A stretch of DNA of 64,000 nt from an uncultured Clostridia bacterium (lineage in GTDB: Bacteria; Bacillota; Clostridia; Oscillospirales; Acutalibacteraceae): NCBI GenBank assembly GCA_937916195.1, contig CALFTO010000008.1, positions 4,906 through 68,905 on the forward strand, written 5' to 3'. Positions within the stretch are counted from its first letter, which is position 1, and every line of letters starts with the position of its first letter. Positions 25,122-53,377 of the stretch are shown piece by piece. Under the pieces are notes generated by a model that was given only the letters and a program-made list of their open reading frames with translations, was not told the origin of the DNA and ran no database searches. Both the position numbers and the translations under genes were made by a program.

Positions 25122-26357
25122 TTGTGTAATTTTTTTAAAACTCTTTCTGCAATCTGCACTGCGTTGTGCGTAATTATTTTTTCTTTGGTCTATTTGGGAC
25201 AAAAAAATATACCAGATAAAATAACAACAATCGAAAATTCAATCTATGAATTTAAAAGCATTTTCGGTATTTCATTGTTTCGTTTAAATTGTGAAAACGA
25301 AAAAGGAGTCGCATCGGGGACTGCCCGAGCTTCACATAATGAAGCTGAAATTGACCTTTTAAATATTATTCCCGTAAAAACTGCTGAAATAACCAATTCT
25401 AAAAGAAAATATGTTGTTTTGGGCGGTGAGCTTTTCGGTGTTAAGCTTTATACTGAAGGTGTTCTTGTGGTTGATACTGATTCAGTTGAAACAGAAAACG
25501 GTAATGTTAATCCAGCTGAAAAGGCAGGGCTTAAAGTAGGGGATATTATAAAAAGTGTGAATAATGAAAAAATAACCTCTACCAAATCTCTTGCGCAAAA
25601 AATTGAAAAAAGTAATGGCGAAAAAATGAGCTTTAATATTGTGCGTAATAACAGAACTCTTACAATTGAATTTTCAACCTATAAAGATATAAATACGGGA
25701 AAATATAAAGCAGGACTCTGGGTGCGCGACAGTACGGCAGGTCTTGGAACGGTAACTTTTTATAATTCGGAAGAAGAGTCCTTTGCAGGTCTCGGTCATG
25801 GAATTTACGATGTTGACACCAATGAAATAATGCCTATGAATAGAGGCGAAGTATTTACGGCTTATGTTAATGGAATTTACAAAAGCAGTACGGGCAGTGT
25901 AGGCGAGCTTTGCGGCGTAATAACAGGTAAATCGATAGGGGAGCTTTGTCTTAATAATGAAATGGGAGTTTATGGCTTTACTAAAACTGTTAAAAATGAA
26001 TCAATTCCCGTTGCAGTAAAGCAAGAAGTCACAACAGGTGCAGCAAAAATATACTGTACTCTTGATGACGGCGGAGTAAAAGGCTATGATATTGAAATAA
26101 AAAAGATATATTCTAATTCTGATTCGGTTAATAAAGATATGATAATTGAAGTTACTGACAAAGCATTACTTGAAAAAACAGGCGGAATAGTTCAGGGAAT
26201 GAGCGGCTCACCGATAATACAAAACGGCAAGCTTGTAGGTGCCGTTACGCATGTTTTTGTCAATGACCCCACAAAAGGCTATGCAATTTTTATTGAAAGA
26301 ATGATTGATACAGCAGAAATTATGGCAGAAGAGCAAATCTTGCAGAATGCCGCATAG
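25122..26357 (+). CDS. spoIVB: SpoIVB peptidase (S55, PDZ-containing sporulation signalling protease)
   Basis: PDZ (GLKVGDIIKSVNNEKI), GLGTVTFY...FAGLGHGI, catalytic GMSGSPIIQNGKLVGAVTHVF. TTG start 7 nt after GGAGG. Confidence 0.9.
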   Translation: MCNFFKTLSAICTALCVIIFSLVYLGQKNIPDKITTIENSIYEFKSIFGISLFRLNCENEKGVASGTARASHNEAEIDLLNIIPVKTAEITNSKRKYVVLGGELFGVKLYTEGVLVVDTDSVETENGNVNPAEKAGLKVGDIIKSVNNEKITSTKSLAQKIEKSNGEKMSFNIVRNNRTLTIEFSTYKDINTGKYKAGLWVRDSTAGLGTVTFYNSEEESFAGLGHGIYDVDTNEIMPMNRGEVFTAYVNGIYKSSTGSVGELCGVITGKSIGELCLNNEMGVYGFTKTVKNESIPVAVKQEVTTGAAKIYCTLDDGGVKGYDIEIKKIYSNSDSVNKDMIIEVTDKALLEKTGGIVQGMSGSPIIQNGKLVGAVTHVFVNDPTKGYAIFIERMIDTAEIMAEEQILQNAA

Positions 26358-26452: not shown

Positions 26453-26482
26453 TTGACTACTTAATGCCATTTGTGGTAAAAT
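26453..26482 (+). promoter_or_regulatory. sigma-A-type promoter of the surface-module operon
   Basis: -35 TTGACT (26453-26458), 18-bp spacer, TGgTAAAAT (TAAAAT at 26477-26482). Confidence 0.45.
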
Positions 26483-26549
26483 ATACTGAATTATAAGGCA
26501 AAATGTGCCCTTATGACAAAATAACTTTGACGGGTAAATAGGAGGAACT

Positions 26550-29360
26550 ATGAAAAAAGTTAAAGAATTATTGGGAAAGATTAAGGCTCTTGACAAAAAG
26601 AAAAAGATTCTCTTAATCGTTCTCTCATGTGTTTTGGTTTTAGCCATTGCAGGCGGTATTGTTGCCGCAGTTGTATTAGGTGGCGGAGAAAGCTTGGGTA
26701 GTGAAACACCGGGCGAAAATACTACATACAGCGTAAGTGTAAAAACTGCCGGTGGTATGGCTTTGTCTGAAATCGATGTTTATATCTACGACAGCAAAAA
26801 GAAAGATAATATGAAAGATATGGGCAAAACCGATGAAAACGGTAAAGTTACCTTTAATCTTCCTAAAAGCAGCAAATATGCAATCGAGCTTTCAGGTGTA
26901 GCAAAAGGCTATGAAGTTGAAGAAAGCTATAAATTCGACGGCGAAAGTGCTGAAATCGTTTTGACTTCTTCAATTATTAAAGGTGAAGATATTTCAACTG
27001 TAACTCTCGGTCTTGGTGATGTAATGTATGACTTCACCGTAATGGCGGCAGATGGCAAAGAAATCACTCTTTCTGATGTTCTTAAAAAGAAAGATTTGGT
27101 AGTGCTTAACTTCTGGTATACAACTTGCTCATGGTGTGTTGAAGAATTCCCACTTATTGAGACTGTTTATCAAGAATATAAAGATAATGTTGAAGTTATC
27201 GCATTAGACCCAATGGACGATATCTCAGCAGTAGAAACATTCCAGAAGCAGTACGGACTTTCATTCCCAATGGCATCTTGTCCTTCTTCTTGGTCAAATA
27301 CTTTTGGAATTCAAGGTTATCCTACAACAATTATGATTGACCGTTACGGTGTAATTTGTCTTGTTGAGTCAGGTGCAGTTACAAGCAAGAGACCATGGGT
27401 TTCTGCTTTTGACCATTTCACAGCAAAAGATTATGAGCAGAAGCTTTGCGTGAACGGCATTGGCGATTTGGTAACACAGATTAAGCCAAATGTTGAAATG
27501 CCAAAATCTGAAAAGATTGCAGAATTAATCAATAAAGGCACCATCAATGTAACATATCGTCCTGAAACTGAAGATGAAAATGCAGAGTATATTTGGCCAT
27601 TTATTGAAGGCGAAAAGCTTGGTCAGTCCTGTATTTATGCTTCAAACAAGGGCATTGATGATTCATATGCAATTATGTATGCCGACGTTGAGCTTAAAAA
27701 AGGTCAGGCGCTTGGTTTCGATTATTTAATTTCCTCTGAACACCTTTGTGATATTTTATATGTAATTGTAAATGACGAAGATATTTTCCAGATTTCTGGT
27801 GTATCTGATAAAGAAAAATGGCAGTCATGCTATCCCGTTGTTGCAGATGAAGACGGCACTTATGAGGTTGCACTGTGCTTTATGAAAGATAGTGACGGCT
27901 CAGCAGGTGATGACACCGTATACATTGACAATATGCGTGTTGTAAATGAAAAAGATATTGACGTTGCAACATATCTTCCTCGTCAGGCTGCCGTAACAAA
28001 AGATGATGGCGATACATATTCATATGTTGATGTCGTTTACAACGAAAAAGACGGTTATTATCATGTTGGTTCTGCTAATGGTCCGCTTCTTCTTGCAGAT
28101 TTGATGAACTATACACAGTTCAATGAAGAAGAGTCACTTCATGACATTGTTTATGCAGGCGATGCAGATAAAGACGGCATAAGTCTTTATGATTATGAAA
28201 AAGACGGCGGTAAGGGAATGGTTAATTATTTCTCTTACGCTTCAAACTCAACTATAAGTGGTACTTGTACAGTTACTAAAGAACTGGCTGAAATGCTCAA
28301 ACAGGTTGCAGAAGTTGCAGGCTTTGAAGATGATGCAAACGAGTGGCTCAAGATTTGTAAGTACTATCAAGCTTACGGTAAGGGTGCAAAACAACTTGAA
28401 GACCCCATTAAAGGTCTTGCAACATTCTCAGCATACACGACAAAGCTTGGTAAAAATGTTTCAACAAACTATTTCTATTATGACAGAGCAATTATTCCAA
28501 GAGGTCTCTTTTCTGAATTCAAGCCTACAAAGTCCGGTGTTTATCGTTTCACTTCAAAGAGTGATTATGAAGAGGGTATTGATGCTTGGATTTTCAACGA
28601 AAAGGGCGAAGTAATCTATACATACGAGCACGACGAAAGAATGTACACTGATACAATCAACTGCTCAATGGTTTATTATATGGAAGCAGGCAAGTCATAT
28701 TATATCAATATGGCATTCTGGGATATTTACGCAACGGGTACAATTAAGTATGATGTTGAATATCTTGGCTCATCATATAAGCTTTTCCGTGCTTGTGCAC
28801 CCGGTTATTTCACTTATGACAGCGATGCTACAGGCGACGTAATGTATGATATCATTTCCGGTGGTATTAAGCCCGTACTTAAAAATGGTAAATATTATGA
28901 ATCTGAGTACAATAGCTTAATTTATGCTGACTTTACAGGTCTTACAAGCATTTTTGACCGTTCAATCATTGAAATGATTGAAATGGGTGGCTTTGATTTC
29001 AGTAAGTCTGAAACTGACGGCGAAATTCTTGCATATATGGCACAGAATGACAATGATGTAGAAAAGACCGATGCATACCTCAAGAAGCTTTGGGGTGAAG
29101 ATTATGATGCAAATGCAGAAATTTATCAGCTTGACGATATTTATGCAGGTCGTTACCACGGCGACGGTCCTGATTTGACAGCTGAAATGCGTGCATATGC
29201 AAAGAAAATTGATAAATCAGGCACAGAAAAAGACGGTTGTGTTGTAGTTGACGAAAGACTTGCAGAAATTCTTCAGCTTCTTATGGATAAATACACATTT
29301 GAAGGCGTAGATAATTCTTGGATTAAGCTTTGCTATTACTACGACAATTTAAGCAAATAA
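26550..29360 (+). CDS. P1: signal-anchored 936-aa surface protein (Ig-like module + TlpA/ResA-like thioredoxin (CSWC) + jelly-roll-like domain + two DGYYH/CYY-type modules flanking a PPC-like beta-sandwich)
   Basis: TM at ILLIVLSCVLVLAIAGGIVAAVVL. Ig-like YSVSVKTAGG...TDENGKVTFNL...GYEV. Redoxin LVVLNFWYTTCSWCVEEFP...GYPTTIMIDRYG. Also FDYLISSE...CFMKDSDGSAGDDTVYIDNMRVV, DGYYHVGSANGPLLL...WLKICKYY, and terminal WIKLCYYYD. Confidence 0.8.
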   Translation: MKKVKELLGKIKALDKKKKILLIVLSCVLVLAIAGGIVAAVVLGGGESLGSETPGENTTYSVSVKTAGGMALSEIDVYIYDSKKKDNMKDMGKTDENGKVTFNLPKSSKYAIELSGVAKGYEVEESYKFDGESAEIVLTSSIIKGEDISTVTLGLGDVMYDFTVMAADGKEITLSDVLKKKDLVVLNFWYTTCSWCVEEFPLIETVYQEYKDNVEVIALDPMDDISAVETFQKQYGLSFPMASCPSSWSNTFGIQGYPTTIMIDRYGVICLVESGAVTSKRPWVSAFDHFTAKDYEQKLCVNGIGDLVTQIKPNVEMPKSEKIAELINKGTINVTYRPETEDENAEYIWPFIEGEKLGQSCIYASNKGIDDSYAIMYADVELKKGQALGFDYLISSEHLCDILYVIVNDEDIFQISGVSDKEKWQSCYPVVADEDGTYEVALCFMKDSDGSAGDDTVYIDNMRVVNEKDIDVATYLPRQAAVTKDDGDTYSYVDVVYNEKDGYYHVGSANGPLLLADLMNYTQFNEEESLHDIVYAGDADKDGISLYDYEKDGGKGMVNYFSYASNSTISGTCTVTKELAEMLKQVAEVAGFEDDANEWLKICKYYQAYGKGAKQLEDPIKGLATFSAYTTKLGKNVSTNYFYYDRAIIPRGLFSEFKPTKSGVYRFTSKSDYEEGIDAWIFNEKGEVIYTYEHDERMYTDTINCSMVYYMEAGKSYYINMAFWDIYATGTIKYDVEYLGSSYKLFRACAPGYFTYDSDATGDVMYDIISGGIKPVLKNGKYYESEYNSLIYADFTGLTSIFDRSIIEMIEMGGFDFSKSETDGEILAYMAQNDNDVEKTDAYLKKLWGEDYDANAEIYQLDDIYAGRYHGDGPDLTAEMRAYAKKIDKSGTEKDGCVVVDERLAEILQLLMDKYTFEGVDNSWIKLCYYYDNLSK

Positions 29361-29399
29361 TTTTTAACTCTTTAATTTATTGAAAAGGAGTTTGAAAAA

Positions 29400-30629
29400 A
29401 TGAAAAAAATTAAAGGCGTTGTTGCTATTATTCTTGTAGTATGTATGCTTGCTACTCTTACTGCTTGTGGTGGTAACAAAACATATAAGGTTGCCGTTAA
29501 AGACGCACTTGGCAATCCTTACACATCTGGCGTAGTTGTTAACTTTATGCAGAATGGCGAAAAAGTTGGTATGCAGGCTTGTGACGAAAACGGAGTAGCA
29601 ACCAAAAAGCTTCCTAAAGGCGAATATACAGTTTCACTGTCATTTACTGACAGTGAAACAGAGTATTATTATGATGAGAATACAAAAGTAACTGCAAGTG
29701 AAAACGAAATTGATTTGGTTTTGGCTTACAAAACCTCTGAAGAGCCCACAATTCTCTATGTTGGTTCAGAAGAGCTTGAGGCCTATGCAGTTTCAGTAGG
29801 TTGTACTTATGTTGAACTTTCAAATGAGCACAGAAATTATTTTCTTTTCACACCTAAAGAAGCAGGTAATTATGAATTCTCTGTAATCGGTGATGTAAAA
29901 ACTGAAATCGGTTATTACGGCGCACCTCATTTTGTTCAGAGCAATAATGTTGCAGAGGTAGTTAACAACAAGTTTACTGTTTCTGTAAGCGCAAGTATGA
30001 TTGGCACAGGCGATAGTGGTACTTCAACTTATGTTATCGGTATCGACGCACTTGATGCTGATTCAAAGAATTGCGTTCTTGCAATTAATCGTCTTGGTGA
30101 TGCAATTAAAACTCTCGCTGACGAGCCATGGACAATCTACCAGAAAACTGTTGACCTTACTGAATACACGTTGCCCGCAGGTGCACAGATTAAAGAATTT
30201 GACTTGACTGCATCAACAGATACATATAAATTTGTATTTAACGAGAATGATGGCTTCTATCATCTTAATTCTGCAAATGGTCCTTTGGTGCTTGTTCGTC
30301 TTGCTGAGGATTGTGATTATATTGCTTGTTTTGAGACAATGCTCGACCGTTCAGGCGTTACAAAGTATTTCTTTGATGAGAACGATGAGTTTGTCAAGAA
30401 AGAAAGCTATTCAGAATGTCTTCTCGAATATATCGAATATGTTGACGAAGCAGAGGGTGTTTATCCTCTTACTGAAGACCTCAAATATATCATTCAGCAG
30501 CGTGGCGGATACGTCGGCTGGTGGGATATTGAAAGCTCAGGCTATATTTTCAAAGACGCAGCTGGTAATAACGATGCAACAATCAACGCAGAAATCGCTT
30601 GGCTCTTGATGTGTTGTTATATTGATTAA
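29400..30629 (+). CDS. P2: lipoprotein (Ig-like module + beta-sandwich + DGYYH...CYY module)
   Basis: Lipobox LATLTAC. YKVAVKDALGNP...CDENGVATKKLPKGEYTV; GNYEFSVIGD; DGFYHLNSANGPLVLV...YPLTEDLKYI...WLLMCCYID. Confidence 0.8.
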   Translation: MKKIKGVVAIILVVCMLATLTACGGNKTYKVAVKDALGNPYTSGVVVNFMQNGEKVGMQACDENGVATKKLPKGEYTVSLSFTDSETEYYYDENTKVTASENEIDLVLAYKTSEEPTILYVGSEELEAYAVSVGCTYVELSNEHRNYFLFTPKEAGNYEFSVIGDVKTEIGYYGAPHFVQSNNVAEVVNNKFTVSVSASMIGTGDSGTSTYVIGIDALDADSKNCVLAINRLGDAIKTLADEPWTIYQKTVDLTEYTLPAGAQIKEFDLTASTDTYKFVFNENDGFYHLNSANGPLVLVRLAEDCDYIACFETMLDRSGVTKYFFDENDEFVKKESYSECLLEYIEYVDEAEGVYPLTEDLKYIIQQRGGYVGWWDIESSGYIFKDAAGNNDATINAEIAWLLMCCYID

Positions 30630-30640
30630 TCTAATGAAGT

Positions 30641-31498
30641 ATGTTTAAGAAAAAAGTATTATCTATTATATCAGTTGTTTTAATACTGTGCATTTTGTTT
30701 TCAGGCTGTAACAGCTCTGACAATAAAGATGCTGAAAAGGTTGCTTACACCGTAAAGGTTGAAACTATTGGCGGAATGCCACTTGAAGATGTTATGATTA
30801 AGGTGTATAAAGATGCCGAAATGCAAAATCTTCAATGGGGCACAGAAACTGACAACGATGGTGTAATTACCTTTAACGCTGAGCCTTCAAAAACCTATTA
30901 TGCAGTTCTTGAAGAAGTTCAAGAGGGATATAAGCTTGAAGCAAATTATGAAATAACAAGCAAAAACACAACTATTTCTCTTGAAACCGTTATTGGTGAC
31001 GCAAAAGATATGTCAGGTGTTACCTACAAGCTTGGCAGTGTGGTGCACGATTTCACAGTAACTGCAATTGACGGAAAAGAATATAAGATTTCTGATTTGC
31101 TTAAAACTAAAAAAGCCTTAGTGCTTAATTTTTGGTATCTCAATTGTCAGCCCTGTAAAATGGAGTTTCCGTATTTACAGCAAGCATATATTGATTATCA
31201 AGATGAAATTGCATTAATCGCTATTAATCCATATGACGGCACAAATGATACGGTTTCTGCTTATGCGGTTGAGAATGAACTCACTTTCCCAATGGTGTCA
31301 GATGAGAAGATTGATTGGGCAAGTATTGTGCAGTTAACAGCTTATCCTACAACTGTTGTAATTGACCGTTATGGTACAATTTGCATGATGCATAGGGGAA
31401 TGGTAACCAGCAAAGAGGATTTCACAAAAGTATTTGAATTCTTTACTGCTGACGATTACAAACAGACTTTAATCAGAAATTTAAATGACATTGAATAA
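30641..31498 (+). CDS. P3: lipoprotein (Ig-like module + TlpA/ResA-like thiol-disulfide oxidoreductase, CQPC)
   Basis: Lipobox LFSGC. YTVKVETIGGMPL...TDNDGVITFNA...GYKL. LVLNFWYLNCQPCKMEFP...AYPTTVVIDRYG. Paralogous to the N-terminal third of P1. Confidence 0.85.
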   Translation: MFKKKVLSIISVVLILCILFSGCNSSDNKDAEKVAYTVKVETIGGMPLEDVMIKVYKDAEMQNLQWGTETDNDGVITFNAEPSKTYYAVLEEVQEGYKLEANYEITSKNTTISLETVIGDAKDMSGVTYKLGSVVHDFTVTAIDGKEYKISDLLKTKKALVLNFWYLNCQPCKMEFPYLQQAYIDYQDEIALIAINPYDGTNDTVSAYAVENELTFPMVSDEKIDWASIVQLTAYPTTVVIDRYGTICMMHRGMVTSKEDFTKVFEFFTADDYKQTLIRNLNDIE

Positions 31499-31520
31499 TT
31501 TTTATAAAGAGGTATATAAA

Positions 31521-31931
31521 ATGAAAAATTTAAAGAAAGTTTTAGCAGTTTTACTCGCTCTCGGAATGCTCTTCTGCTTCTGCGCTTGCGGTGGTAATGA
31601 TGAGGGTAAAACTACTACAACTACCACAACTACAACTGAAAATCAGTCGACAGAAAATGAAAATCCGGTTGAAAACAAAGGCTTTACAGTTACTGTTGTT
31701 GATGAAAACGGAATTGCAGTTTCAGGTGTTATGGTTCAGCTTTGCAAGGATGCTTGTGTTCCTGCAAAAACAGACGATAACGGTAAGGCAACATTCAGCA
31801 TTGAGGTTACTGACGGTTACAAATTATCTGTAATGTCTTGCCCCGAAGGCTATGAGTACACAGGTGAAGCAGAAGTTTATCTTGAAGATGGTGCAACTGA
31901 ATATACTCTTGAATTAAAGGCGGTGGCATAA
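31521..31931 (+). CDS. P4: small lipoprotein (Thr-run linker + single Ig-like module)
   Basis: MKNLKKVLAVLLALGMLFCFCACGG lipobox, TTTTTTTTT linker, FTVTVVDENGIAVSGVMVQL...TDDNGKATFSI...GYEY. AAGAGG RBS before ATG 31521; the track ORF starts at 31485. Confidence 0.8.
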   Translation: MKNLKKVLAVLLALGMLFCFCACGGNDEGKTTTTTTTTTENQSTENENPVENKGFTVTVVDENGIAVSGVMVQLCKDACVPAKTDDNGKATFSIEVTDGYKLSVMSCPEGYEYTGEAEVYLEDGATEYTLELKAVA

Positions 31932-32941
31932 TGGAAAAACTTAAAAAATTAGATAAAAAAGTAATTATCGGTATTGTTGCTGCTGTTCTTGCAGTTGTGA
32001 TTGCTGTTGTTGCTGTTGTAATTGCAACAAGTGATAAACCTGCGAATACTGACCCCGACAATACAAATTCTAATGAATATGTAGCCAATGCAAATGATGA
32101 TGATTCATCAACATCAACAAGCGAAGATGAAAGCACATCTGATGAAGAGTCTTCAAGTGAAGAAGACACAAGTTCCGAAGAAGATGCTCAGAACGGCGAA
32201 GAAGATAAGACCAATGGCAGTGATAAAGGCGACGGTACTACAGCAGTGCAGAAGCCCACAGCTACAAATCCCGATGGTGATGAAATTCTCGGTGCAGGTA
32301 GCAAGGACCAGCCTTATCTTGAAACTCCCGGTAGTGATTTTGCTGTAACAACAGCAAAAGTTCCCGCAGGCAAAGCTCTTTATTATGATATTTACCGTGT
32401 AGGTGGTATGTATTTGACAATTAATGATGCTGATGCTTATGTAATCTGCAACGGCACAAAGTACACTGCTAAAAATGGTAAGGTTTCTTTTAAAGTTCCT
32501 AATGCTTTGGCAAGTGATGCAGTTTCATTCCAGATTGGTAACAATGGTTCATCTGCAAAGAGCTTCACAATTAAATTTGCAAATCTTAAAGGTAGCTATG
32601 CTAACCCTGAAAAGATTTCAAAGCTTACAGGCGATTTTGAAAAGAGCCTTGCAGCAGGTGTTGAAACAGGATATTATTATGAATATAAAGCTGAAAAAAC
32701 AGGTACAATTCGTTTTTATATTGTTGAAGAAACAAAGGACAGCATTATGGTTGTAACAAATAACAGAAACTCTGCCCAGAGAACAACTGAAGCAGACGTG
32801 TTCACCGATGCTGACGGTAATGAGTATATTGAGCTTGAAGTTCAAAAAGGCGACGAAATTATAATTAATATTGGTGCAATGCCGACAAAGCGCGGTAAAT
32901 ATCCCGCAACAGATATTACTTGGCGCGGAGTGTATGCATAA
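31931..32941 (+). CDS. P5: signal-anchored protein (acidic Ser/Glu/Asp linker + two PPC-like beta-sandwich repeats)
   Basis: TM IIGIVAAVLAVVIAVVAVVIA, linker DDDSSTSTSEDESTSDEESSSEEDTSSEED, repeats GSKDQPYLE...YYDIYRVGG... and GSYANPEKI...GYYYEYKAEKTGTIRFY. ATG overlaps the P4 stop (TAATG). Confidence 0.75.
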   Translation: MEKLKKLDKKVIIGIVAAVLAVVIAVVAVVIATSDKPANTDPDNTNSNEYVANANDDDSSTSTSEDESTSDEESSSEEDTSSEEDAQNGEEDKTNGSDKGDGTTAVQKPTATNPDGDEILGAGSKDQPYLETPGSDFAVTTAKVPAGKALYYDIYRVGGMYLTINDADAYVICNGTKYTAKNGKVSFKVPNALASDAVSFQIGNNGSSAKSFTIKFANLKGSYANPEKISKLTGDFEKSLAAGVETGYYYEYKAEKTGTIRFYIVEETKDSIMVVTNNRNSAQRTTEADVFTDADGNEYIELEVQKGDEIIINIGAMPTKRGKYPATDITWRGVYA

Positions 32942-32954
32942 ATAACTAAAAATT

Positions 32955-32994
32955 ATCCACTTTTTTCTAAAATAATTGAAAAAAGTGGATTTTA
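32955..32994 (+). terminator. rho-independent terminator ending the P1-P5 operon
   Basis: ATCCACTTTTTT (32955-32966) pairs with AAAAAAGTGGAT (32979-32990), then TTTTAT. Confidence 0.75.
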
Positions 32995-32997
32995 TTA

Positions 32998-33026
32998 TTG
33001 CATTATAAATAAAATAGTGATAAAAT
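32998..33026 (+). promoter_or_regulatory. sigma-A-type promoter for P6
   Basis: -35 TTGCAT (32998-33003), 17-bp spacer, TGaTAAAAT (TAAAAT at 33021-33026). Confidence 0.45.
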
Positions 33027-33093
33027 ATTTAGGAATATTTATGTAATTGTTAGACCTTAATGACAATTGCACAAAATAAAAGGAGGAAAAATC

Positions 33094-35151
33094 ATGAAAT
33101 CCATGATGAAAAAAACATTAAGCGTAATTATTGCGTTGGCTATGATTCTTGTACCAATGTCAGTATTCGCATCTTCTACAGGTGAGTTGCCTATCGGTGC
33201 AAGTACATTTGCTTCATACGATGGTGATAATAACTGTGAATATACTTATGTAGCTGATGCGGATGGAACAGTAACTCTTTCTTTTTATACAAACAACTGG
33301 TATTGTAATGTATATGAAGATGACGCCTCAACAGGCCCATGTGTTGGTGGCGGATATTGGGGTCTCGGCAGTGAAGTTGCTTTTGATGTAACTGCTGGTA
33401 AAACTTATGTAGTTGTTATCCAGGGCCAAACTGCTGGTGATAATATTATGTTTATGGGTAGCTTTGAAGAAGGTTCAGCAGGTGGTTCAGCAGATGGTTC
33501 AACTTATGAAACAGCTGTTGAAATTCAGAGCGGTGCTATGGAATATGTTGATGGTATGGCTCAGAAGTACTTTAAGATTGCTGCCGACTACGGTGTAGAG
33601 TATACTTTAACCGTTCAAGGAACTATGATGGCAAGTTTCGATTTATATACTGAAGGCAGAATGGGAATGGGTTATTCTTCAAGTGGTGCTTATGGTACAC
33701 CAGCAACTGCAACAGTTTATGCAAATAACGGATATGTTACTTTTATGATTCAGGAAACTGGCAGAATGGGTGCGGATGTTCAGATTACATTATCCGCTAC
33801 TCCCGTTTCTACTGTAGGCACATATGATGACCCCGAAGAGTTAACAACTCTTGGTCAGGCAACAGCAGATTGCAGCACAGGTGCTCATTGGTATAAATGG
33901 ACTGCAACTGAAGCAGGTGTATTTACTGTTTCTGTACCTATGTCACTTGTTATGATGGGTAGTGCATCTTATGGTATCTTTACTGTTAATGGTGAAACAC
34001 CCGCAAACATTGAAGAGGCAATGGCATCTCAGGAGGTTGAAGTTTTTGCTGGTGATGTTGTTACATTCTATGTAAGAGATTTTGAGAGCACAACTATTGA
34101 TTTCTCAACTGAATTTGTTGCTGGTGCTACACTCGGCGGCGGTGACGAAGGTGGCGACGACATCGGCGGTGGTGATGACATCGGCGGTGGTGAAGAAGAT
34201 GTGAACTACATAAAGAGTGATACTCTTCTTGAAGTTGGCGAAAACGCTTATGTTGTAGATGGTCGATACCAGTACACAATCTATGCTTTTGAGCCAACTG
34301 AAGAAGGTAAATATACATTCTCATCTGCTGATAGTGTAATGGGTATCGCAAGTAACAATGGTGCTTGGGTTACAACTGAGCCAAGTGCAGAAACAGTTAA
34401 CGCGAATGAATTTTCTTGGAATTGCGAAAGCGTTGGCCAGTCAATTTGGGTTGCTGTAATGGCTGATACAAATGTTGCTAACATTACAATCACAAGAGAA
34501 GACCTTGAGGTTAAAGAAGAGATTGAGTGGGTTGTTTATGAAAATATAACAACTCCTGAAGCTTTCACATATGAAGGCGATGTTGCTGACCTTGTTTATG
34601 TTGACACTCTTGAAGATGAAGTAGTTGATACAGCAGTCCTTGGTGACGATGGATACTATCACCTTAACTCAGCAGATGGTCCTATCCTTTACGTTGATAT
34701 TATGGGCTTAATGGATGATACAATGTTATCAGCAGTTGAAGCATATGGTTATGGTCAGTTGACAGCTGTTTTCCAGGATGAAAACTTAGTTGTTCTTTCA
34801 AAGACTGATTATAATGAAGCTTTTGCAGAGTATGCTGCTTGTGCAGATGCAGAAACAGGTTTATATCCTTTAACAGCTGACTTAATGGAAATCTACAAGA
34901 ATGTAGGTACAGCTAAGGGTTGGTACGGTGAGAATGGTGCTGTAGGCGGTACAGAAGATGACGCTTGGATGTTTGCTTGCTATTATGTTCCCGCTGTTGT
35001 AGATGGCGGTAACGAAGGTGGCAACGTTCCTAACCCTGAAATTCCCAACACAGGCGCTGAAGCATTTGGTGTTGCATTTGCTATGATGGCTACTGCAGCT
35101 GCTCTTGGTGCAACAGTTGTTACAACAAAAAAGTCAAAGAGAGTTAAATAA
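33094..35151 (+). CDS. P6: secreted, predicted sortase-anchored protein (PPC-like beta-sandwich repeats + DGYYH...CYY module + C-terminal IPNTG sorting signal)
   Basis: Signal peptide MKSMMKKTLSVIIALAMILVPMSVFA (AAAGGAGG RBS before ATG 33094). Repeats such as TYDDPEELTTLG...HWYKWTATEAGVFTVSV. DGYYHLNSADGPILYV...YPLTADLMEI...WMFACYYVP. C-terminus IPNTG + AEAFGVAFAMMATAAALGATVV + TTKKSKRVK. Confidence 0.85.
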   Translation: MKSMMKKTLSVIIALAMILVPMSVFASSTGELPIGASTFASYDGDNNCEYTYVADADGTVTLSFYTNNWYCNVYEDDASTGPCVGGGYWGLGSEVAFDVTAGKTYVVVIQGQTAGDNIMFMGSFEEGSAGGSADGSTYETAVEIQSGAMEYVDGMAQKYFKIAADYGVEYTLTVQGTMMASFDLYTEGRMGMGYSSSGAYGTPATATVYANNGYVTFMIQETGRMGADVQITLSATPVSTVGTYDDPEELTTLGQATADCSTGAHWYKWTATEAGVFTVSVPMSLVMMGSASYGIFTVNGETPANIEEAMASQEVEVFAGDVVTFYVRDFESTTIDFSTEFVAGATLGGGDEGGDDIGGGDDIGGGEEDVNYIKSDTLLEVGENAYVVDGRYQYTIYAFEPTEEGKYTFSSADSVMGIASNNGAWVTTEPSAETVNANEFSWNCESVGQSIWVAVMADTNVANITITREDLEVKEEIEWVVYENITTPEAFTYEGDVADLVYVDTLEDEVVDTAVLGDDGYYHLNSADGPILYVDIMGLMDDTMLSAVEAYGYGQLTAVFQDENLVVLSKTDYNEAFAEYAACADAETGLYPLTADLMEIYKNVGTAKGWYGENGAVGGTEDDAWMFACYYVPAVVDGGNEGGNVPNPEIPNTGAEAFGVAFAMMATAAALGATVVTTKKSKRVK
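34159..34194 (+). repeat. 18-bp direct tandem repeat x2 inside P6 (encodes DIGGGD/DIGGGE linker)
   Basis: GACATCGGCGGTGGTGAT (34159-34176) and GACATCGGCGGTGGTGAA (34177-34194), 17/18 identical. Confidence 0.9.
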
Positions 35152-36145: not shown

Positions 36146-36240
36146 TATATTTCTCTTTTCGCTTTTTTTACAGAATAACATATACAAACTTATTTTTCAA
36201 ATATTTTTACATATAATAATCAAAAAAGGTTGTGAATATT

Positions 36241-37212
36241 ATGTGTACGGCAGTATCTTTTCAGTCAAAAGACCATTATTTCGGACGAAATCTTGATGTG
36301 GAGTGTTCGTACGGCGAAAAAATAGTTATTACTCCGCGAAAATACCCATTTAATTTCAGGTTTGAAAAATCAAGGGAAAATCATTATGCGATAATTGGTA
36401 TGGGTATTGTTGCTGATAGTTATCCGCTTTATTTTGATGCTACAAATGAAAAAGGACTTTCAATGGCAGGGCTCAATTTTCCTGAAACCGCAGATTATGA
36501 AGAACCAACTGAAGATAAGCATAATATCGGTGTGTTTGAGTTAATTCCATGGGTTTTAAGCAGTTGCTCAAGTGTTGATGAAGCAAAAGATTTATTACAA
36601 AAAACCAATATTGTTGCAATGGATTTTAATGAAGAATATCATTCAACACCGCTTCATTGGATGATTTCTGACCGTGATTATTCTATTACTGTCGAATGTG
36701 TTGAAAAGGGGCTTAAAATCTATTATAACCCTGTTCACGTGCTTACAAACAACCCTGAATTTCCAATGCAGATGTTTAATCTAAATAACTATATGAGCCT
36801 TACGAGAGAAGAACCTGAAACTCGTTTTGCTGAGGGCTTTGATTTCTATAAATACAGCAGGGGAATGGGTACACTTGGTATGCCCGGTGATTTATCTTCA
36901 ATGTCGCGTTTTGTAAGAGCATCGTTTACGCGACTTAATTCAGTATGCGGTGAAACAGAAAGTGAAAGTGTAAGTCAGTTTTTTCATATTCTTAATTCGG
37001 TGGCTCAGACAAGAGGCTGTGTGCGTGTTGAAGACAGTTTTGAAATTACTTCATACGCTTCTTGTTGCAATACGGATAAAGGAGTTTATTATTACAAAAC
37101 CTATGAGAATAGTCAGATTTCTGCTGTGGATTTGCACCGAGAAAACCTTGACAGAAACGGGCTTATAATATATAATCTTGTCAATGAACAACAGGTAAAT
37201 TATCAAAATTAA
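36241..37212 (+). CDS. bsh: choloylglycine (bile-salt) hydrolase, Ntn-hydrolase family
   Basis: MCTAVSF...YFGRNLD (Cys2 nucleophile), LHWMISD, VLTNNPEF, MSRFVRASF, YYYKTYENSQISAVD. Colinear with the clostridial CBAH pattern. Confidence 0.85.
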   Translation: MCTAVSFQSKDHYFGRNLDVECSYGEKIVITPRKYPFNFRFEKSRENHYAIIGMGIVADSYPLYFDATNEKGLSMAGLNFPETADYEEPTEDKHNIGVFELIPWVLSSCSSVDEAKDLLQKTNIVAMDFNEEYHSTPLHWMISDRDYSITVECVEKGLKIYYNPVHVLTNNPEFPMQMFNLNNYMSLTREEPETRFAEGFDFYKYSRGMGTLGMPGDLSSMSRFVRASFTRLNSVCGETESESVSQFFHILNSVAQTRGCVRVEDSFEITSYASCCNTDKGVYYYKTYENSQISAVDLHRENLDRNGLIIYNLVNEQQVNYQN

Positions 37213-38457: not shown

Positions 38458-39804
38458 CTATTTTGTAAGCACACCACCGTCGCTGTAAAGCAAAATAAGA
38501 ATGTTGTCCTCTTCACCGGTTTCACAATCGACATAGACAAGCAATTCTTGTCCCTCATCGGTTTTACAATGAATTTCATAACAATACTTCTCTGTCTGCC
38601 AATCAGTTGGAATTATACAAAGCTGAGTGTCAATAATCTCAAGATATCCGTTGAGCGTGGCTTCTGCCTGTGCACGATTAATTTTTGCTTTGAGTGAGTC
38701 ACGTTTTTGATGATTGTAAATGTATCCGGTTGCGTCAAAAGACATAATCTCACCATTTGAAAGGTTAACACTTACTTTTATAAGGTCAGGATAAAGTGTC
38801 ACACCATTTTCTGTTGCGGCAAAGTTAACCGTGCAAATACCATCGTCGGCAAAATAATAGCTTTCACGCATATTTTCATAACCGATTTTTGATAGATATC
38901 TTTTAGCGTTTTGAACTGCTTCTTTGTATTCAAGCTGAATTTCACCTGCAAAGCTTGAATTAATCATATACAAAGGCTTGCCGCCGATTTTGGTAATTGC
39001 AACGGTGCAGTCTTCTCCTTGAAAAACATAGCAGGGAATATCGCCATTTTCATCATAAGCATATTCAAGACTTTCTGCTTCTGCCATACAAACTTCTTTT
39101 GCAACTTCTAATGCTTGATTTTCGCTTATTTCTTCAAGTCCCTCAAGAAATCTTGGCTCTCCCTGGTCAATATGGTCAGAAAACGGACCATCATATATAA
39201 GCGATGGTAAATCTGTCATTGCCTGCTCTGCATCATCAAGACTTTTACTTAATGTGCTTAACTCAGTGTTTTCTTGGGGTAGGGTAGAGTTGTAATCATC
39301 AAAACTGAAGCTACCATTTTGCAAGTCAAAACACATTTTACTTACTTGTTCATTTAACGAAATACAATAGTTCTTAAGCTCTTTAAGTTGTTCTCTTTCA
39401 CTGTTAGTAAGCTCTTGACCCATAGCACTTTTCCGCTGAAGAGACATTACAAACTCGCCGATTTGCGATAAAAATTTGTAAGTGTTATTTAGTGAAATAT
39501 TTTCTGCTGGCAGTATTGAAAGGCTTGTTTTTGCGGACGATGCCTCACGCCACAAATCTGAACCTAACTCTGAAAGCATTGTGGGTGTGCTTACATAAAC
39601 TGTTTTTTCAAGATTTGTTGAAATATTGTTAAGACATTCTTCAAGTGAAAGTAACGCCATTTGCTTTGTAACAAGTGCTTCCCGTTCATATTTTTGAGCC
39701 CTTACAGTTTGCACAATACTGAAAATTCCCAACACAGTAATAACTGTACCAACGTAAAGCCCAAGTCTGATTTTCGCCCGACGGGACATATGTTTTTGTT
39801 CCAT
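38458..39804 (-). CDS. ypeB: germination protein YpeB (PepSY-domain protein)
   Basis: 448 aa. N-terminal TM, a long helical region (SLEECLNNISTNLEK...LWREASSAKTSLSILP) and C-terminal PepSY-like repeats. AAGGGAG RBS. Confidence 0.8.
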   Translation of the reverse strand: MEQKHMSRRAKIRLGLYVGTVITVLGIFSIVQTVRAQKYEREALVTKQMALLSLEECLNNISTNLEKTVYVSTPTMLSELGSDLWREASSAKTSLSILPAENISLNNTYKFLSQIGEFVMSLQRKSAMGQELTNSEREQLKELKNYCISLNEQVSKMCFDLQNGSFSFDDYNSTLPQENTELSTLSKSLDDAEQAMTDLPSLIYDGPFSDHIDQGEPRFLEGLEEISENQALEVAKEVCMAEAESLEYAYDENGDIPCYVFQGEDCTVAITKIGGKPLYMINSSFAGEIQLEYKEAVQNAKRYLSKIGYENMRESYYFADDGICTVNFAATENGVTLYPDLIKVSVNLSNGEIMSFDATGYIYNHQKRDSLKAKINRAQAEATLNGYLEIIDTQLCIIPTDWQTEKYCYEIHCKTDEGQELLVYVDCETGEEDNILILLYSDGGVLTK

Positions 39805-42274: not shown

Positions 42275-42754
42275 ATGACACTTGAAGAAAAAACCGTAAA
42301 AGTTTTAAAAGAAAAAAACTTGGTAATGGCTTGCGCAGAGTCCTGCACAGGCGGATTAATTGCGAAAAGAGTTACTGACGTAAGCGGTTCTTCATCTGTG
42401 TTTAATTGCGGAATTGTAAGCTATAGCAATGAGATTAAAGAAAAAGTGCTCGGTGTAAAACACGAAACTCTTGAAATCTATGGCGCAGTAAGTGAACAGA
42501 CTGTTCGTGAAATGGTGGCAGGAGTGCTTAAAATTTCGGGTGCTGATGTTGCAGTTGCTGTTTCAGGTATTGCAGGACCTTTGTCCGATAATACATCAAA
42601 GCCCGTTGGTCTTATTTGGCTTGCAGTTTCAGACAGCAAAACAACTGACGTAAAGTGTCTTAATAATAACTTTACCGATGATATTAGAAATAACAATCGC
42701 ATTAGTGCTTCTGATGAGGCTTTAAAGCTGATTTTACAAAAGGCAGGTGAATAA
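42275..42754 (+). CDS. CinA C-terminal-domain protein (nicotinamide-nucleotide amidohydrolase PncC type)
   Basis: MACAESCTGGLIA...GIVSYSNEIKEKVLGV...GAVSEQTV...VAVSGIAGP. Confidence 0.88.
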   Translation: MTLEEKTVKVLKEKNLVMACAESCTGGLIAKRVTDVSGSSSVFNCGIVSYSNEIKEKVLGVKHETLEIYGAVSEQTVREMVAGVLKISGADVAVAVSGIAGPLSDNTSKPVGLIWLAVSDSKTTDVKCLNNNFTDDIRNNNRISASDEALKLILQKAGE

Positions 42755-43709
42755 TTTGGCAAATGATAAAAAAAGAATAGGCAAGGGCAGAGCCCTTCTT
42801 TTAGCAATCTGTATTATTATCTTTCTTTTTTCTGCCTCTCTCGTTATTAAACATTTTGTGGAAATTAATAATAATAAAAGAGGCTATGAAGACCTTGCAG
42901 GTCTTGTAAACAATACAACGTTAGATAATGGTGAGAGCGAAGACGAGCCGGTGCCTGATTATTCTCCGTTGATTGAACAAAACCGCGATTTTGTGGGTCA
43001 GATTATAGTGCCTAACACATCAATCAATCATCCCGTTGTGCAATATGCAGATAATGATTATTATCTTGACCATAGTTTTGAAAAGAAATATGATTATCGC
43101 GGGGCAATCTTCATGGATTACCGAAACGATGCTGTAAATCTTGATTCTAACACAATTATTTACGGCCATAATGCATATGACACAACAATGTTTTCAGAGC
43201 TTGTTAAATACGAGGATATTGAATTCTATAAAAAATCACCGATAATAGAGTTTAATACTCTTGAAGCTAATTATAAATGGAAGATTTATGGTGTGTTTAT
43301 AACAAATGCTACTGCAAGCGAAGATAATGGTTATATCTTCAATTATATATATCCGTATATGGACGGCGAGAATTTTGACGGATTTATCGAAGAGGTCAAT
43401 AAGCGCAGACTTTACACAACCGATGTTGATATAACTGACGACGATAAAATGCTTGTTTTGTCAACTTGTGTTCGTACACTTGACCTTAAGAATAAATACG
43501 GTAAAACGACATATCGTGCAAATGCAAGATTAGTAGTTCTTGCCCGTATGGTACGTGACGGCGAAAGTTTTGAGGTTAATGTGGATAACGCAAAAGCAAA
43601 CGAAAATCCTAAATATCCACAGCTTTGGTATGATAAGCATGGCTTGAAAAACCCTTATAAAAATGACGAAAAATGGTATCCTCAGGAGGTAGTACAAGAT
43701 GAACAATAA
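42747..43709 (+). CDS. class B-type sortase (SrtB-1)
   Basis: TM anchor, DFVGQIIVPNTSINHPVVQYADNDYYL...GAIFMDYRN...IIYGHN (His)...LVLSTCV (Cys)...ARLVVLARM (Arg). 8-nt overlap with the cinA-C gene. Confidence 0.85.
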   Translation: MNNLANDKKRIGKGRALLLAICIIIFLFSASLVIKHFVEINNNKRGYEDLAGLVNNTTLDNGESEDEPVPDYSPLIEQNRDFVGQIIVPNTSINHPVVQYADNDYYLDHSFEKKYDYRGAIFMDYRNDAVNLDSNTIIYGHNAYDTTMFSELVKYEDIEFYKKSPIIEFNTLEANYKWKIYGVFITNATASEDNGYIFNYIYPYMDGENFDGFIEEVNKRRLYTTDVDITDDDKMLVLSTCVRTLDLKNKYGKTTYRANARLVVLARMVRDGESFEVNVDNAKANENPKYPQLWYDKHGLKNPYKNDEKWYPQEVVQDEQ

Positions 43710-45036
43710 AAATAACAACGAAGTACTTTCTTTTGAGGAGCTTCGTAAAAAGCTTGGTATGGATGAGGCTTCAGAGCCTGCAAAAACTGAAAGTAACGGT
43801 TTTTCTGAGCTTGCTGACGATATTCTTTCAGTTGAAGAGGGAAGTTTAGAAATTAATACCTCAGCAAAAGACGATATTGTTTCACAAATTGAGAAAAAAT
43901 TGAGTGAAACAGAAAATAACGAGCCTTCTGAATTTACTGAAAACGGCAAAACCTTTGTTGATATTACATCACAGTATGTAAAAAAAGATAATTCAGAAAT
44001 CAAAAGTGAAAACTCCGTTGCAACGACTCAAAAGAAAAAGGTAAGAACCTTTAACGAGATTTTCTCTGACTTTTTTAAAGGCTTTATTCCGCTTAAAAAA
44101 GATAGCACAAAAGAAAAAATCCGTAAAATTGTTATGGATATTTCTATAATCGCAATAATTGGTTGTTGCTTTGCATTTGTTGAGTTGTATAATCAATGGA
44201 GAGAACAACAAAATATGCAAGAAGATTTGAGTAATAAGATTGTCGAGACCGATGATATGGATGATAATCAGTATGTTGAAGCTTGGGAAGAGTTGTTTGC
44301 ACAATATCCCAATATCACATTTCCTGACGGAATGAACCTTAAATATTCATATCTTTATGCTGTTAATCAGGATTTGGTCGGTTGGCTTAAAATTGATAAT
44401 ACCAATCTTGATGTTCAGGTGGTACAGAGTGAAGATAATGACTATTATTTGAGACGAGATTTTTATCAAAAATCAAGCCGTTATGGTTGTCCTTATCTTG
44501 ATTTCAAGAATGACCCCAAATATCTCGACGATAACACCGTGATTTATGGTCACCATATGACTGACGGTCTTATGTTCTCAAACCTTGATAAATACAGAAC
44601 ATTAGAAGGCTATAAGGAATCACCTGTAATTGAATATAGCACACTTTATGATACATATTATTTCAAAGTTTTTGCGGCATTTGTGACAAATTCAAATGTT
44701 GCGGATGACGATAATTATATGTTCAACATTATGGTAACAGATTTTAGTACGGACGAGAAATTCACAAGTTTTGTTGAAGAGGCTAAAAAACGCAGTATTG
44801 TAAATACAGGTGTTTCTGTTCAGCCTGACGATAAGCTTATAACTCTTGTTACCTGTACCTATGATTTTGATGACGCAAGACTTATTATAATGGGCAGACT
44901 TCTTCGTGAAAATGAAGAGCCTACCGTTGATACAAGTATGGCGGCACTTAATACTGCACCTAAATATCCGCAGGCGTGGTATGATGCTAATAATATGGAA
45001 AATCCTTATAAGGATGATGAGGATTGGACTCCGTAA
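43699..45036 (+). CDS. class B-type sortase (SrtB-2) with ~150-aa acidic N-terminal extension
   Basis: GGAGG RBS. TM IVMDISIIAIIGCCFAFVELY. DLVGWLKIDNTNLDVQVVQSEDNDYYL...VIYGHH...LITLVTCT...ARLIIMGRL. 11-nt overlap with SrtB-1. Confidence 0.85.
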   Translation: MNNKNNNEVLSFEELRKKLGMDEASEPAKTESNGFSELADDILSVEEGSLEINTSAKDDIVSQIEKKLSETENNEPSEFTENGKTFVDITSQYVKKDNSEIKSENSVATTQKKKVRTFNEIFSDFFKGFIPLKKDSTKEKIRKIVMDISIIAIIGCCFAFVELYNQWREQQNMQEDLSNKIVETDDMDDNQYVEAWEELFAQYPNITFPDGMNLKYSYLYAVNQDLVGWLKIDNTNLDVQVVQSEDNDYYLRRDFYQKSSRYGCPYLDFKNDPKYLDDNTVIYGHHMTDGLMFSNLDKYRTLEGYKESPVIEYSTLYDTYYFKVFAAFVTNSNVADDDNYMFNIMVTDFSTDEKFTSFVEEAKKRSIVNTGVSVQPDDKLITLVTCTYDFDDARLIIMGRLLRENEEPTVDTSMAALNTAPKYPQAWYDANNMENPYKDDEDWTP

Positions 45037-50245: not shown

Positions 50246-50573
50246 AGAGTAGGTTGGGCAGTTGCGCAAGTTTTACTTGTGAGGAAAGTCCGAGCATCAC
50301 ACAGCAGGGTAACGGCTAACAGCCGCCGAGGGTGACCTTAGGGAAAGTGCATAGAAAATTACCGCCGTTTTTAACGGTAAGGGTGGAAAGGTGAGGTAAG
50401 AGCTCACCGGCGTTGCAGAGATGTAACGGCCGAGCAAACCCTACCCGATGCAACATCGACCGAAGTTGTCAGCTGGGCAGATACTTCGACGGATGGCTAG
50501 AGGCACATAGCAATATGTGTCACAGATAGATAATTGCCTTTAAAGACAGAACTCGGCTTACAGACCTACTCTT
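50246..50573 (+). ncRNA. rnpB: RNase P RNA (bacterial)
   Basis: P1 pairing AGAGTAGGT/ACCTACTCT, P4 strands GAGGAAAGTCCG and ACAGAACTCGGCTTACAG, GGTAAGGGTGGAAAGGTGAGGTAAGAGCTCACC core. Ends +/-5 nt. Confidence 0.93.
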
Positions 50574-50581
50574 ATTTTAAT

Positions 50582-53205: not shown

Positions 53206-53221
53206 TCAAGCCAAGTAAATA

Positions 53222-53315
53222 GTGCATGGGTGCTGACGGTTAAGTCGGCTGAGATTGAGGCTAATCTGCCTCTGACCATTGAACCTGATACGGATAATGC
53301 CGTCGTAGGAAAGCT
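53222..53315 (+). promoter_or_regulatory. TPP (THI-box) riboswitch aptamer
   Basis: GGGTGCTGACGG...GGCTGAGATTGAGG...CCTCTGACCATTGAACCTGATACGGATAATGCCGTCGTAGGAAAG. CUGAGA and ACCUGAU-N-GGAUAAUGCC-N-CG core elements are present. Confidence 0.9.
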
Positions 53316-53320
53316 TTTCA

Positions 53321-53358: not shown

Positions 53359-53377
53359 TTATTTGGAGGAAAATAAA

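Follow-up and report, generated by a model that had tools for sequence, protein, structure and literature searches.

A conserved gene cluster of uncultured Oscillospirales that may encode an envelope-tethered thiol-disulfide oxidoreductase assembly built from ResA-like thioredoxins and an undescribed module

What is the function of a group of six neighbouring genes whose products are all predicted to be exported and anchored, and which could not be assigned to any described system when their sequence was first read? We addressed this question for the cluster P1 to P6 of an uncultured Clostridia bacterium of the Acutalibacteraceae, which lies in a 64-kb window, that is, the whole stretch of 64,000 nucleotides (nt) of contig CALFTO010000008.1 that was analysed. 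All positions are numbered within this window, and P1 to P6 designate six open reading frames (ORFs), all on the forward strand (Table 1). The answer that we put forward, tentatively and with slightly more doubt than confidence, is that the cluster is an operon whose products would form a thiol-disulfide oxidoreductase assembly, extracytoplasmic and tethered to the envelope, which would act on the cysteines of a recurrent module (DGYYH…CYY, hereafter the DGYYH module) and would include a variable surface protein as its distal part.

Two of the products, P1 and P3, carry ResA/TlpA-like thioredoxin domains with a CxxC motif, and on this point the original prediction was borne out by four lines of evidence. 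Pfam recognised Redoxin and AhpC-TSA in both proteins (63.2 and 61.7 bits in P1, about 1e-17; 66.6 and 46.6 bits in P3; cut-offs of about 26), and the NCBIfam ResA model matched P1 at 84 bits. When the AlphaFold2 (AF2) model of P1, which has a predicted local distance difference test (pLDDT) score of 85.9, was compared with the PDB by Foldseek, ResA was found with an E value of about 1e-10 and a template-modelling score (TM-score) to the target of 0.8-0.9; DsbE, Etrx2 and FetE were also among the matches. In an alignment with ResA of Bacillus subtilis and B. anthracis, NCQPCKMEFPY of P3 matches WCEPCKKEFPY of ResA, P3 keeping C-x-P-C-K-x-E-F-P, and the cis-Pro loop Y-P-T-T aligns with P-T-T of ResA. 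The CxxC..EFP signature is invariant in all 46 P1 homologues and all 36 P3 homologues, as are, in the P1 set, Cys 193, 196, 244, 573, 603, 897 and 928. Residues 18-302 of P1 are 38% identical to P3 (E 3e-62). By analogy with ResA, the Glu that follows the CxxC motif suggests a reductase-type chemistry, and the N-terminal anchors of P1 and P3 would place both domains outside the cytoplasm.

ResA and StoA are extracytoplasmic thiol-disulfide oxidoreductases of the TlpA family in B. subtilis, and they are reduced via CcdA. P1 and P3 resemble them in the thioredoxin fold, in their best sequence and fold matches, which are to ResA, in the N-terminal membrane tether, in the C-x-x-C followed by x-x-E-F-P, in the cis-Pro loop and in the presence of two paralogues in one organism. 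Nevertheless, an identity as ResA or StoA equivalogs was rejected, because the scores are far below the NCBIfam cut-offs (for StoA_CxxC, 57.4 bits in P3 and 33.9 bits in P1 against 210); P1 and P3 are therefore best described as members of the TlpA/ResA superfamily that are equivalogs of neither. They also differ from ResA and StoA in their Ig-like (immunoglobulin-like) stalks, in the fusion of P1 to about 640 further residues, in a genomic partner that is an undescribed domain family, and in a cluster without ResB, ResC and CcdA. Indeed, none of these three was found among the recurrent neighbour families of the 80 related loci described below, which had no dedicated scan, or among the scanned ORFs of the window. 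The cluster proteins contain no CcdA-like transmembrane domain either, P1 having a single helix.

The partner of these thioredoxins is the DGYYH module, which occurs twice in P1 (copies a and b) and once each in P2 and P6. The P2 module matches P1a in hhalign at 96.9%, and P1a matches P1b at 98% over the C-terminal half; the hallmarks are DGYYH..GP, G.YPLT..L and W..C(C/Y)Y. From 1.84 billion representatives, a module profile of 149 positions retrieved 1158 clusters (50% identity) when E ≤1e-3 was required; a limit of E ≤1e-10 left 735. Across 160 module copies the conserved columns are D35, G36, Y38, H39, G45, P46, Y91, G100, L108, W136, C140 and Y142, the D, G, Y, H, G, P, W and Y being 89-100% conserved. 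The C-terminal Cys (C140) is present in 141 of the 160 copies (88%), a Cys at 140 or 141 in 158, and two or more Cys in 150. The same holds for the individual proteins of the window: all four module Cys of P1 are invariant in the 46 homologues, C405 and C406 of P2 are invariant and C340 is kept in 22 of 23, and in P6 C629 is found in 17 of 17 homologues and C583 in 14 of 17.

The idea that the unassigned modules lie outside any described family or system agrees with the database searches. Pfam gave no consistent match for 15 module sequences at E ≤10, NCBIfam no match over the module in the six proteins, and a cluster look-up of ten module proteins no name. A PDB sequence search with the module profile reached a best E value of 0.75, and one with the P1 C-terminal region returned nothing. 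In the literature, a search for TlpA in Oscillospiraceae returned nothing, and the papers found for 'Fimenecus' were microbiome surveys only. The association with thioredoxins recurs within the module family and is stronger than the first reading of the sequence could show. A redoxin domain is located on the same chain in 65 of the 150 best module-family representatives, and six long representatives contain redoxin, Ig-type repeats and the module, with other enzyme domains absent. Three architectures recur, namely sandwich-module (as in P2 and P6), Ig-thioredoxin-jelly roll-module-sandwich-module (as in P1) and Ig-thioredoxin-Ig(n)-sandwich-module. We conclude that the module is a previously undescribed alpha/beta domain tied to extracytoplasmic thioredoxins.

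The rest of the cluster draws on the same small stock of domains, and module matches by blastp and hhalign across P1-P6 uphold the combinatorial assembly that had been predicted. By hhalign, P1, P3 and P4 have related Ig domains (probability 97-99.9%), and the Ig domain of P2 matches that of P1 (blastp, 1e-4). Residues 115-408 of P2 match residues 367-632 of P6 (E 5e-19). The beta-sandwiches P5b, P6b and P6c are homologous (hhalign, 92-99%; P6b against P6c, 98.8%), the second P5 sandwich (P5b) matching P6c at 97.4% and thus being a relative of the P6 repeats. P6d matches the P2 sandwich at 88%; apart from P6d, hhalign detected no relation between the P5 and P6 sandwiches and the P2 sandwich. 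For the six proteins, Pfam and NCBIfam returned the redoxin/ResA-like domains and weak Ig, prealbumin and CarboxypepD_reg matches at the N-termini of P1-P4. P4 has weak Pfam Ig matches only, and its relation to the Ig domains of P1 and P3 rests on hhalign (97-98%); P5 has no family match in either database. The predicted jelly roll of P1 corresponds to an all-beta domain in the AF2 model. As to the sandwiches that had been called PPC-like, the label has fold support in the middle domain of P2 only, for which Foldseek found the ColG collagen-binding domain (CBD)/PPC structures 1nqd, 5iku and 5sv5 (E values of 2e-5 to 1e-3; target TM-score, about 0.6); Pfam PPC has no match in any of the six proteins, and the cluster has no peptidase. 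The AF2 model of P2 has a pLDDT of 77, with low confidence at residues 311-336 of the module region, and the 1696 homologues of P2 are each unnamed or 'hypothetical'.

The anchors point the same way for all six products: by sequence, P1 and P5 have signal-anchor helices, P2, P3 and P4 have lipoboxes, and P6 has a signal peptide and a putative IPNTG sorting signal. No sequence in the three family alignments lacks the lipobox Cys (P2, 23 of 23; P3, 36 of 36; P4, 71 of 71). In P4, Cys75 and Cys79 of the C-x3-C motif are present in 64 of 71 homologues. This C-x3-C Ig domain recalls the Ig-fold Cys-pair domain of DsbD (DsbD-alpha), and by analogy P4 could be a redox carrier. One premise of the original prediction failed, namely that the mature proteins carry unusually many Cys: they contain 37 Cys in 2614 residues (1.4%), the figure for the remaining ORFs of the window being 1.6%, and there is just one Cys in P5. 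Daniels et al. (PMC2823432), whose paper is the usual citation on this subject, described cysteine exclusion as a feature of aerobic Firmicutes, and only 33% of the exported proteins of anaerobic Firmicutes were without Cys. The number of Cys is thus ordinary, and the telling point is the invariance of particular ones.

We then asked whether these genes stay together in other genomes, as the original prediction had proposed to check. One genome of every GTDB species was scanned by pattern, which gave 98 loci with a P2 relative; 80 of these were kept (L-numbers), and their gene order was determined by tblastn and a domain-level scan. All 80 come from gut metagenome-assembled genomes (MAGs) of different species, the carriers being uncultured Oscillospirales (Candidatus Fimenecus, at 95% identity and probably the genus to which the window belongs, Acutalibacteraceae, Oscillospiraceae, Faecousia, Candidatus Avispirillum and similar). 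The order P1-P2-P3-P4-P5 is held in most loci, the P5 gene is present in 52, and a further module-bearing gene lies 3' of P5, or inside a fused ORF, in about 45. P1 is 51-97% identical over the 80 loci, mostly about 70%; envelope proteins are seldom conserved to this degree, and the function is therefore likely to be important. The flanks differ by clade: the window and the four loci closest to it have Pfk-AroK-SpoIVB, a second group has genes for a GTPase, an exonuclease and a radical S-adenosylmethionine protein (read by eye), and a third has an Opp-type ATP-binding cassette (ABC) importer with a small membrane protein. Because the flanking genes change between clades, the cluster itself is the conserved unit. 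Moreover, P3, P5 and P6 form one ORF of about 920-1055 aa in a clade that includes the Faecousia MAGs, a fusion that argues for functional coupling.

The signals in the DNA fit such a unit. The six ORFs were confirmed, with gaps of 39, 11, 22 and -1 nt from P1 to P5; the start of P4 is an internal ATG, the same as in the gene call of a near-identical contig. The claimed sigma-A-like promoter upstream of P1 scored 10 of 12 in a consensus scan and is among the two best forward-strand matches in the region; a scan match alone has little weight, because 39 sites were found against 38 expected. What speaks for this promoter is conservation, both hexamers and the TG being kept in L001, L002, L003 and L006 amid DNA that is otherwise variable. 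Five related loci likewise share an invariant short hairpin within the otherwise variable leader of P1, and an Rfam search found no family for it. The 'strong terminator' announced after P5 is a real hairpin, none of 200 shuffles folding equally well; 'strong' is generous, because its stem is A/U-rich, and a simple terminator scan missed it. The terminator 3' of P6 is the stronger of the two (-23.9 against -15.7 kcal/mol). Of a separate P6 promoter there is a weak suggestion, TTGCAT-17-TGaTAAAAT by eye (three of six positions of the -35 box plus an extended -10), on which the scan made no call. Altogether, kept order, tight gaps, one conserved promoter and one terminator make P1 to P5 a conserved unit that is presumably co-transcribed.

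The sixth protein behaves differently from the five others. P6 is a putative wall-linked component, as had been claimed: all elements of a sorting signal are visible by eye, its score on TIGR01167 is just under the cut-off (14.5 against 15.9 bits), and the window contains two sortase-domain genes. The latter overlap slightly, lie 7.6 kb downstream of P6, with a TLVTC motif present, and are candidate enzymes for its IPNTG. IPNTG, SPxTG or APxTG signals with a hydrophobic tail end the sixth protein in 12 loci; in L012 and L018 Pfam finds a type I dockerin instead, and dockerin-like C-terminal repeats are visible in further loci, the anchor thus differing between species. At the level of strains, the conspecific contig L081 is 97.5% identical to the window in DNA up to position 33164 and 96.8% identical from 34861, and between them blastn finds no match. 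P1-P5 are 96-99% identical between the two contigs and P6 43%. Among five close genomes there are at least four P6 allele types, with N-terminal repeat regions that are 25-34% identical and a signal peptide and sorting signal that are nearly identical. P6 is apparently swapped between strains in the manner of a surface antigen or phage receptor.

How would these parts work together? In the scenario that we favour, two ResA/TlpA-type thioredoxins, that of the signal-anchored P1 and that of the lipoprotein P3, would be carried by short Ig-like stalks on the outer side of the membrane, with the DGYYH modules beside them and partly on the same polypeptide. The likeliest activity would be the reduction or isomerisation of module cysteines, the modules being the probable thiol partners, and a ligand held by the modules would be a possible substrate too. 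P4, with its C-x3-C Ig domain, and P5, with its long acidic stalk and beta-sandwiches, would be accessory subunits of what may be a physical complex. P6 would be its distal component, linked to the wall by sortase, built of variable repeats and exchanged as an allelic cassette; since a wall-linked, repeat-built and strain-exchanged pattern is the one expected of such proteins, P6 may be a surface-exposed binding or antigenic protein.

Known systems offer partial precedents. In Streptococcus pneumoniae, Etrx1 and Etrx2 work with CcdA and MsrAB2. They are, like P3, lipoprotein-anchored TlpA-like thioredoxins of a Gram-positive surface, and Etrx2 structures (4hqz, 2yp6) were among our matches; unlike that system, the present cluster encodes neither a methionine sulfoxide reductase nor CcdA, and the partners are Ig, beta-sandwich and DGYYH-module proteins. 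DsbD combines an Ig-fold Cys-pair domain with a thioredoxin-fold domain, which makes P4 a possible counterpart of DsbD-alpha, an idea by analogy; the CcdA/DsbD-type transmembrane domain of DsbD and DipZ is absent here. In MdbA/VKOR of Actinobacteria and SdbA of S. gordonii, a dedicated extracytoplasmic oxidoreductase serves Cys-containing, sortase-anchored surface proteins; MdbA, which is partnered by VKOR, is a DsbA-like oxidase with the motif CPHC. The analogy with these is functional; in the present anaerobic host the domains resemble ResA, and no partner for reoxidation was seen.

Several observations weigh against the favoured scenario. The NCBIfam ResA scores of the two thioredoxin domains, 83.6 and 84.7 bits, are about half the cut-off of 170. 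A CcdA/DsbD-type electron donor is absent from the cluster, and none was recognised in the window. The second module Cys occupies variable columns (87, 94 or 102) and is missing from these three in 46 of the 160 copies; because its column varies and the pairing follows no clean pattern, a fixed structural disulfide is unproven. No match for the module appeared with Foldseek: the P2 model, of low confidence in part of the module region, matched PPC-like sandwiches only, and for the P1 model thioredoxins filled the 50 matches listed. The sixth gene is absent in some species (e.g. L007, L013, L017 and L038) and hence is not essential to the core; together with minimal versions that have P1, P2 and little else (L071, L072, L076 and L079), this points to a core of P1 and P2 with a thioredoxin. 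Finally, an enzyme fused to its own 'client' is unusual, which is why the modules may rather be substrate-binding parts; a permanent functional unit explains the covalent fusion of thioredoxin and module no less well than a relation of enzyme and client would.

This last point leads to the first alternative, rather unlikely in our view, in which the thioredoxins would reduce disulfides of the gut lumen (cystine, dietary or host glycoproteins, mucin) for nutrient acquisition or host interaction, with the jelly-roll, beta-sandwich and DGYYH domains as substrate-binding parts and P6 as a variable capture protein. The permanent fusion of a thioredoxin to binding-type folds fits this idea, and so do the carriers, all of which are gut organisms. 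In DipZ (the C-terminal region of Mycobacterium tuberculosis Rv2874) a thioredoxin is also followed by an all-beta domain, which we take to be like a carbohydrate-binding module (CBM), and 5cyy aligns over about 350 columns of P1 that span the thioredoxin and the following beta domain; the domain arrangement nevertheless differs, with a TM-score of 0.35 and a root-mean-square deviation of 17 A. The part of P1 outside the thioredoxin, compared by Foldseek with a viral library, resembles CBM, F5/8-type and CUB arrays of phage receptor-binding proteins, but these are generic beta-sandwich arrays of tail-fibre proteins with TM-scores of about 0.1. The Opp-type importer directly upstream on the same strand in about 25 loci is a further point in favour; yet this adjacency occurs in one clade only and may be inherited synteny, and the conserved core has neither transporter nor hydrolase. 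A lumen reductase also leaves the near-universal module Cys unexplained. A wider form of the same thought, to which we give an equally low standing, is that the module and its obligatory ResA-like partner make a new Gram-positive surface redox machine that would act on host or dietary disulfides or thiols, perhaps, in many species, with a non-canonical NapH/CD1871A electron input in place of CcdA/DsbD, and with P6 setting the ligand or host specificity.

The neighbours named here are described as observations in their own right. The importer of the large clade has two permeases, two ATPases and a substrate-binding protein (about 845 aa), and the gene that separates it from P1 encodes a membrane protein of 85 aa for which no family was matched. 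Two genes on the opposite strand come after the cluster in 19 of the 80 loci, one for a protein of about 490 aa with a NapH/MauN-type polyferredoxin membrane domain and a C-terminal ResA-like thioredoxin domain (WCTPC), and one for a membrane protein (about 255 aa) with a CXXC domain of the CD1871A family at its end. Together the two could supply the system with electrons; both genes are absent from the window. In L001, of the same genus, the pair occupies the position held in the window by a gene on the reverse strand directly after P6 (35204-36187), whose Cys-rich product scores 210 bits on the flagellin lysine-N-methylase FliB model (cut-off 85).

A role in the sporulation envelope, where a StoA-like thiol-disulfide system of the intermembrane space would serve the assembly of spore cortex or coat, seems to us quite improbable. 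P3 does match StoA below the threshold, StoA (3erw) is among the PDB sequence matches, and sporulation genes lie nearby: spoIVB precedes the cluster in the window, L001-L003 and L006, and follows it on the other strand in L030, L032, L035, L042 and L073; in the window, YpeB lies 3 kb downstream; and L007, L008, L013, L017, L022 and L038 have, after the cluster and on the opposite strand, a gene that resembles a sporulation sigma factor by eye. However, the StoA score is the sub-threshold 57 bits given above, the spoIVB adjacency may be ancestral synteny that was rearranged later, the promoter that is kept across loci is of the sigma-A type, and the sixth protein, with its sortase or dockerin anchor and its hypervariability between strains, points to the vegetative cell surface. 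Very unlikely, finally, is a role in metal or cofactor binding or uptake, in which the module His, Cys, Tyr and Asp would form a site whose liganding thiols the TlpA-like domains keep reduced, as TlpA does for the copper sites of Sco and CoxB: TlpA-family proteins are known to service metal-site thiols, H39, C140, Y38, Y91 and Y142 of the module are invariant, and the fold matches include FetE, a thioredoxin that belongs to an iron-uptake system, but the conserved core has no transporter, Sco-like or metallochaperone gene and no metal-binding family was matched in Pfam or NCBIfam.

Table 1. Features of the P1-P6 cluster in the window and of related loci (nt, window position; res., residues of the protein).
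Feature	Position	Strand	Remarks
Sigma-A-like promoter (putative)	26453..26482	+	TTGACT-18 nt-TAAAAT, TG two bases upstream of -10
Short hairpin, P1 5' leader	26493..26514	+	ATAAGGC-loop-GCCCTTAT; columns invariant in five-locus alignment
P1	26550..29360	+	936 aa
P1 signal-anchor helix	res. about 20-43		AF2 model helix, residues 2-42
P1 Ig/prealbumin-like stalk	res. 57-140		AF2 model
P1 ResA/TlpA thioredoxin	res. 155-290		CSWC at 193-196 (nt 27126-27137)
P1 all-beta jelly-roll	res. 334-466		AF2 model
P1 DGYYH module a, alpha/beta	res. 468-612 (nt 27951-28385)		AF2 model domain 474-609
P1 beta-sandwich	res. 641-748		AF2 model
P1 DGYYH module b	res. 772-936 (nt 28863-29357)		AF2 model domain 776-934
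P2	29400..30629	+	409 aa, predicted lipoprotein
P2 lipobox and Ig-like domain	res. 26-110 (Ig-like domain)		lipobox Cys23 (LTAC)
P2 PPC/collagen-binding-domain-like beta-sandwich	res. 117-233
P2 DGYYH module	res. 249-409 (nt 30144-30626)		ends in invariant CCY
P3	30641..31498	+	285 aa, predicted lipoprotein
P3 lipobox and Ig-like stalk	res. about 30-125 (stalk)		lipobox Cys23 (FSGC)
P3 ResA-like thioredoxin	res. 130-258		CQPC at 169-172 (nt 31145-31156), then KMEFP as in ResA
P4	31521..31931	+	136 aa, predicted lipoprotein, lipobox (F)CAC; Thr-rich linker and one Ig/CarboxypepD_reg-like domain with conserved C-x3-C (Cys75, Cys79)
P5	31931..32941	+	336 aa; signal-anchor helix, acidic Ser/Asp/Glu-rich linker, two beta-sandwich domains
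Intrinsic-terminator-like hairpin and U-run, 3' of P5	32955..32999	+	13 bp, -15.7 kcal/mol, z -5.46
P6	33094..35151	+	685 aa; signal peptide, variable beta-sandwich repeats
P6 P2-like sandwich and DGYYH module	res. 470-640 (nt 34501-35013)
P6 hypervariable allelic cassette	33165..34860	+	mature residues about 25-589
P6 sorting signal (putative)	35041-35055		IPNTG, then 23-residue hydrophobic stretch, KKSKRVK
Terminator 3' of P6	35171..35200	+	13-bp stem (scan); -23.9 kcal/mol, z -6.4
Candidate Cys pairs			P1 C573/C603 and C897/C928; P2 C340/C405-406; P6 C583/C629
Two tandem sortase-domain genes	42747-43709, 43699-45036	+	Pfam Sortase 2.6e-12, 2.8e-13; outside the cluster
NapH-thioredoxin/CD1871A pair	L001:16280-18610	-	also L002, L004, L010-L012, L016, L025, L026, L047, L051, L055, L058, L061, L071, L072, L078-L080
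Opp-type importer upstream of P1			L018, L021, L027, L029-L033, L036, L040-L046, L049, L059, L062, L066-L070
Fused P3-P5-P6			L048, L051-L056, L060, L061, L074, L075, L077, L080

Further genes of the window surround the cluster. Sporulation genes are found at 25122-26357 and 38458-39804, and their recurrence beside the cluster in varied arrangements may reflect ancestral synteny or be a functional hint. Beyond the FliB-like gene lie, on the forward strand, a choloylglycine-hydrolase-family gene (36232-37212) and then a gene for a PnuC-type transporter. The next ORF after the sortases (45078-47222, 714 aa) has no Pfam match at E ≤1e-5 and, by eye, a SpoIID/LytB-like end motif. Two RNA features stand further downstream on the forward strand, a class A RNase P RNA (50246-50576, 260 bits) and a thiamine pyrophosphate riboswitch (53216-53329, 61 bits), both upstream of the ORF 53363-54043.

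The cell surfaces of the carriers, uncultured Oscillospirales that are abundant in animal guts, are essentially unstudied. In this cluster the thioredoxin parts are of a known kind, and what is undescribed in the resources that we searched is the partner domain, the operon architecture, the restriction to uncultured Oscillospirales and the cassette variation of P6. If the redox chemistry targets the bacterium's own surface proteins, as we tentatively propose, these strict anaerobes would have a dedicated pathway of thiol maturation. If instead its targets lie outside the cell, the bacteria would have a new way to interact with disulfide-rich substrates of the host or the diet.

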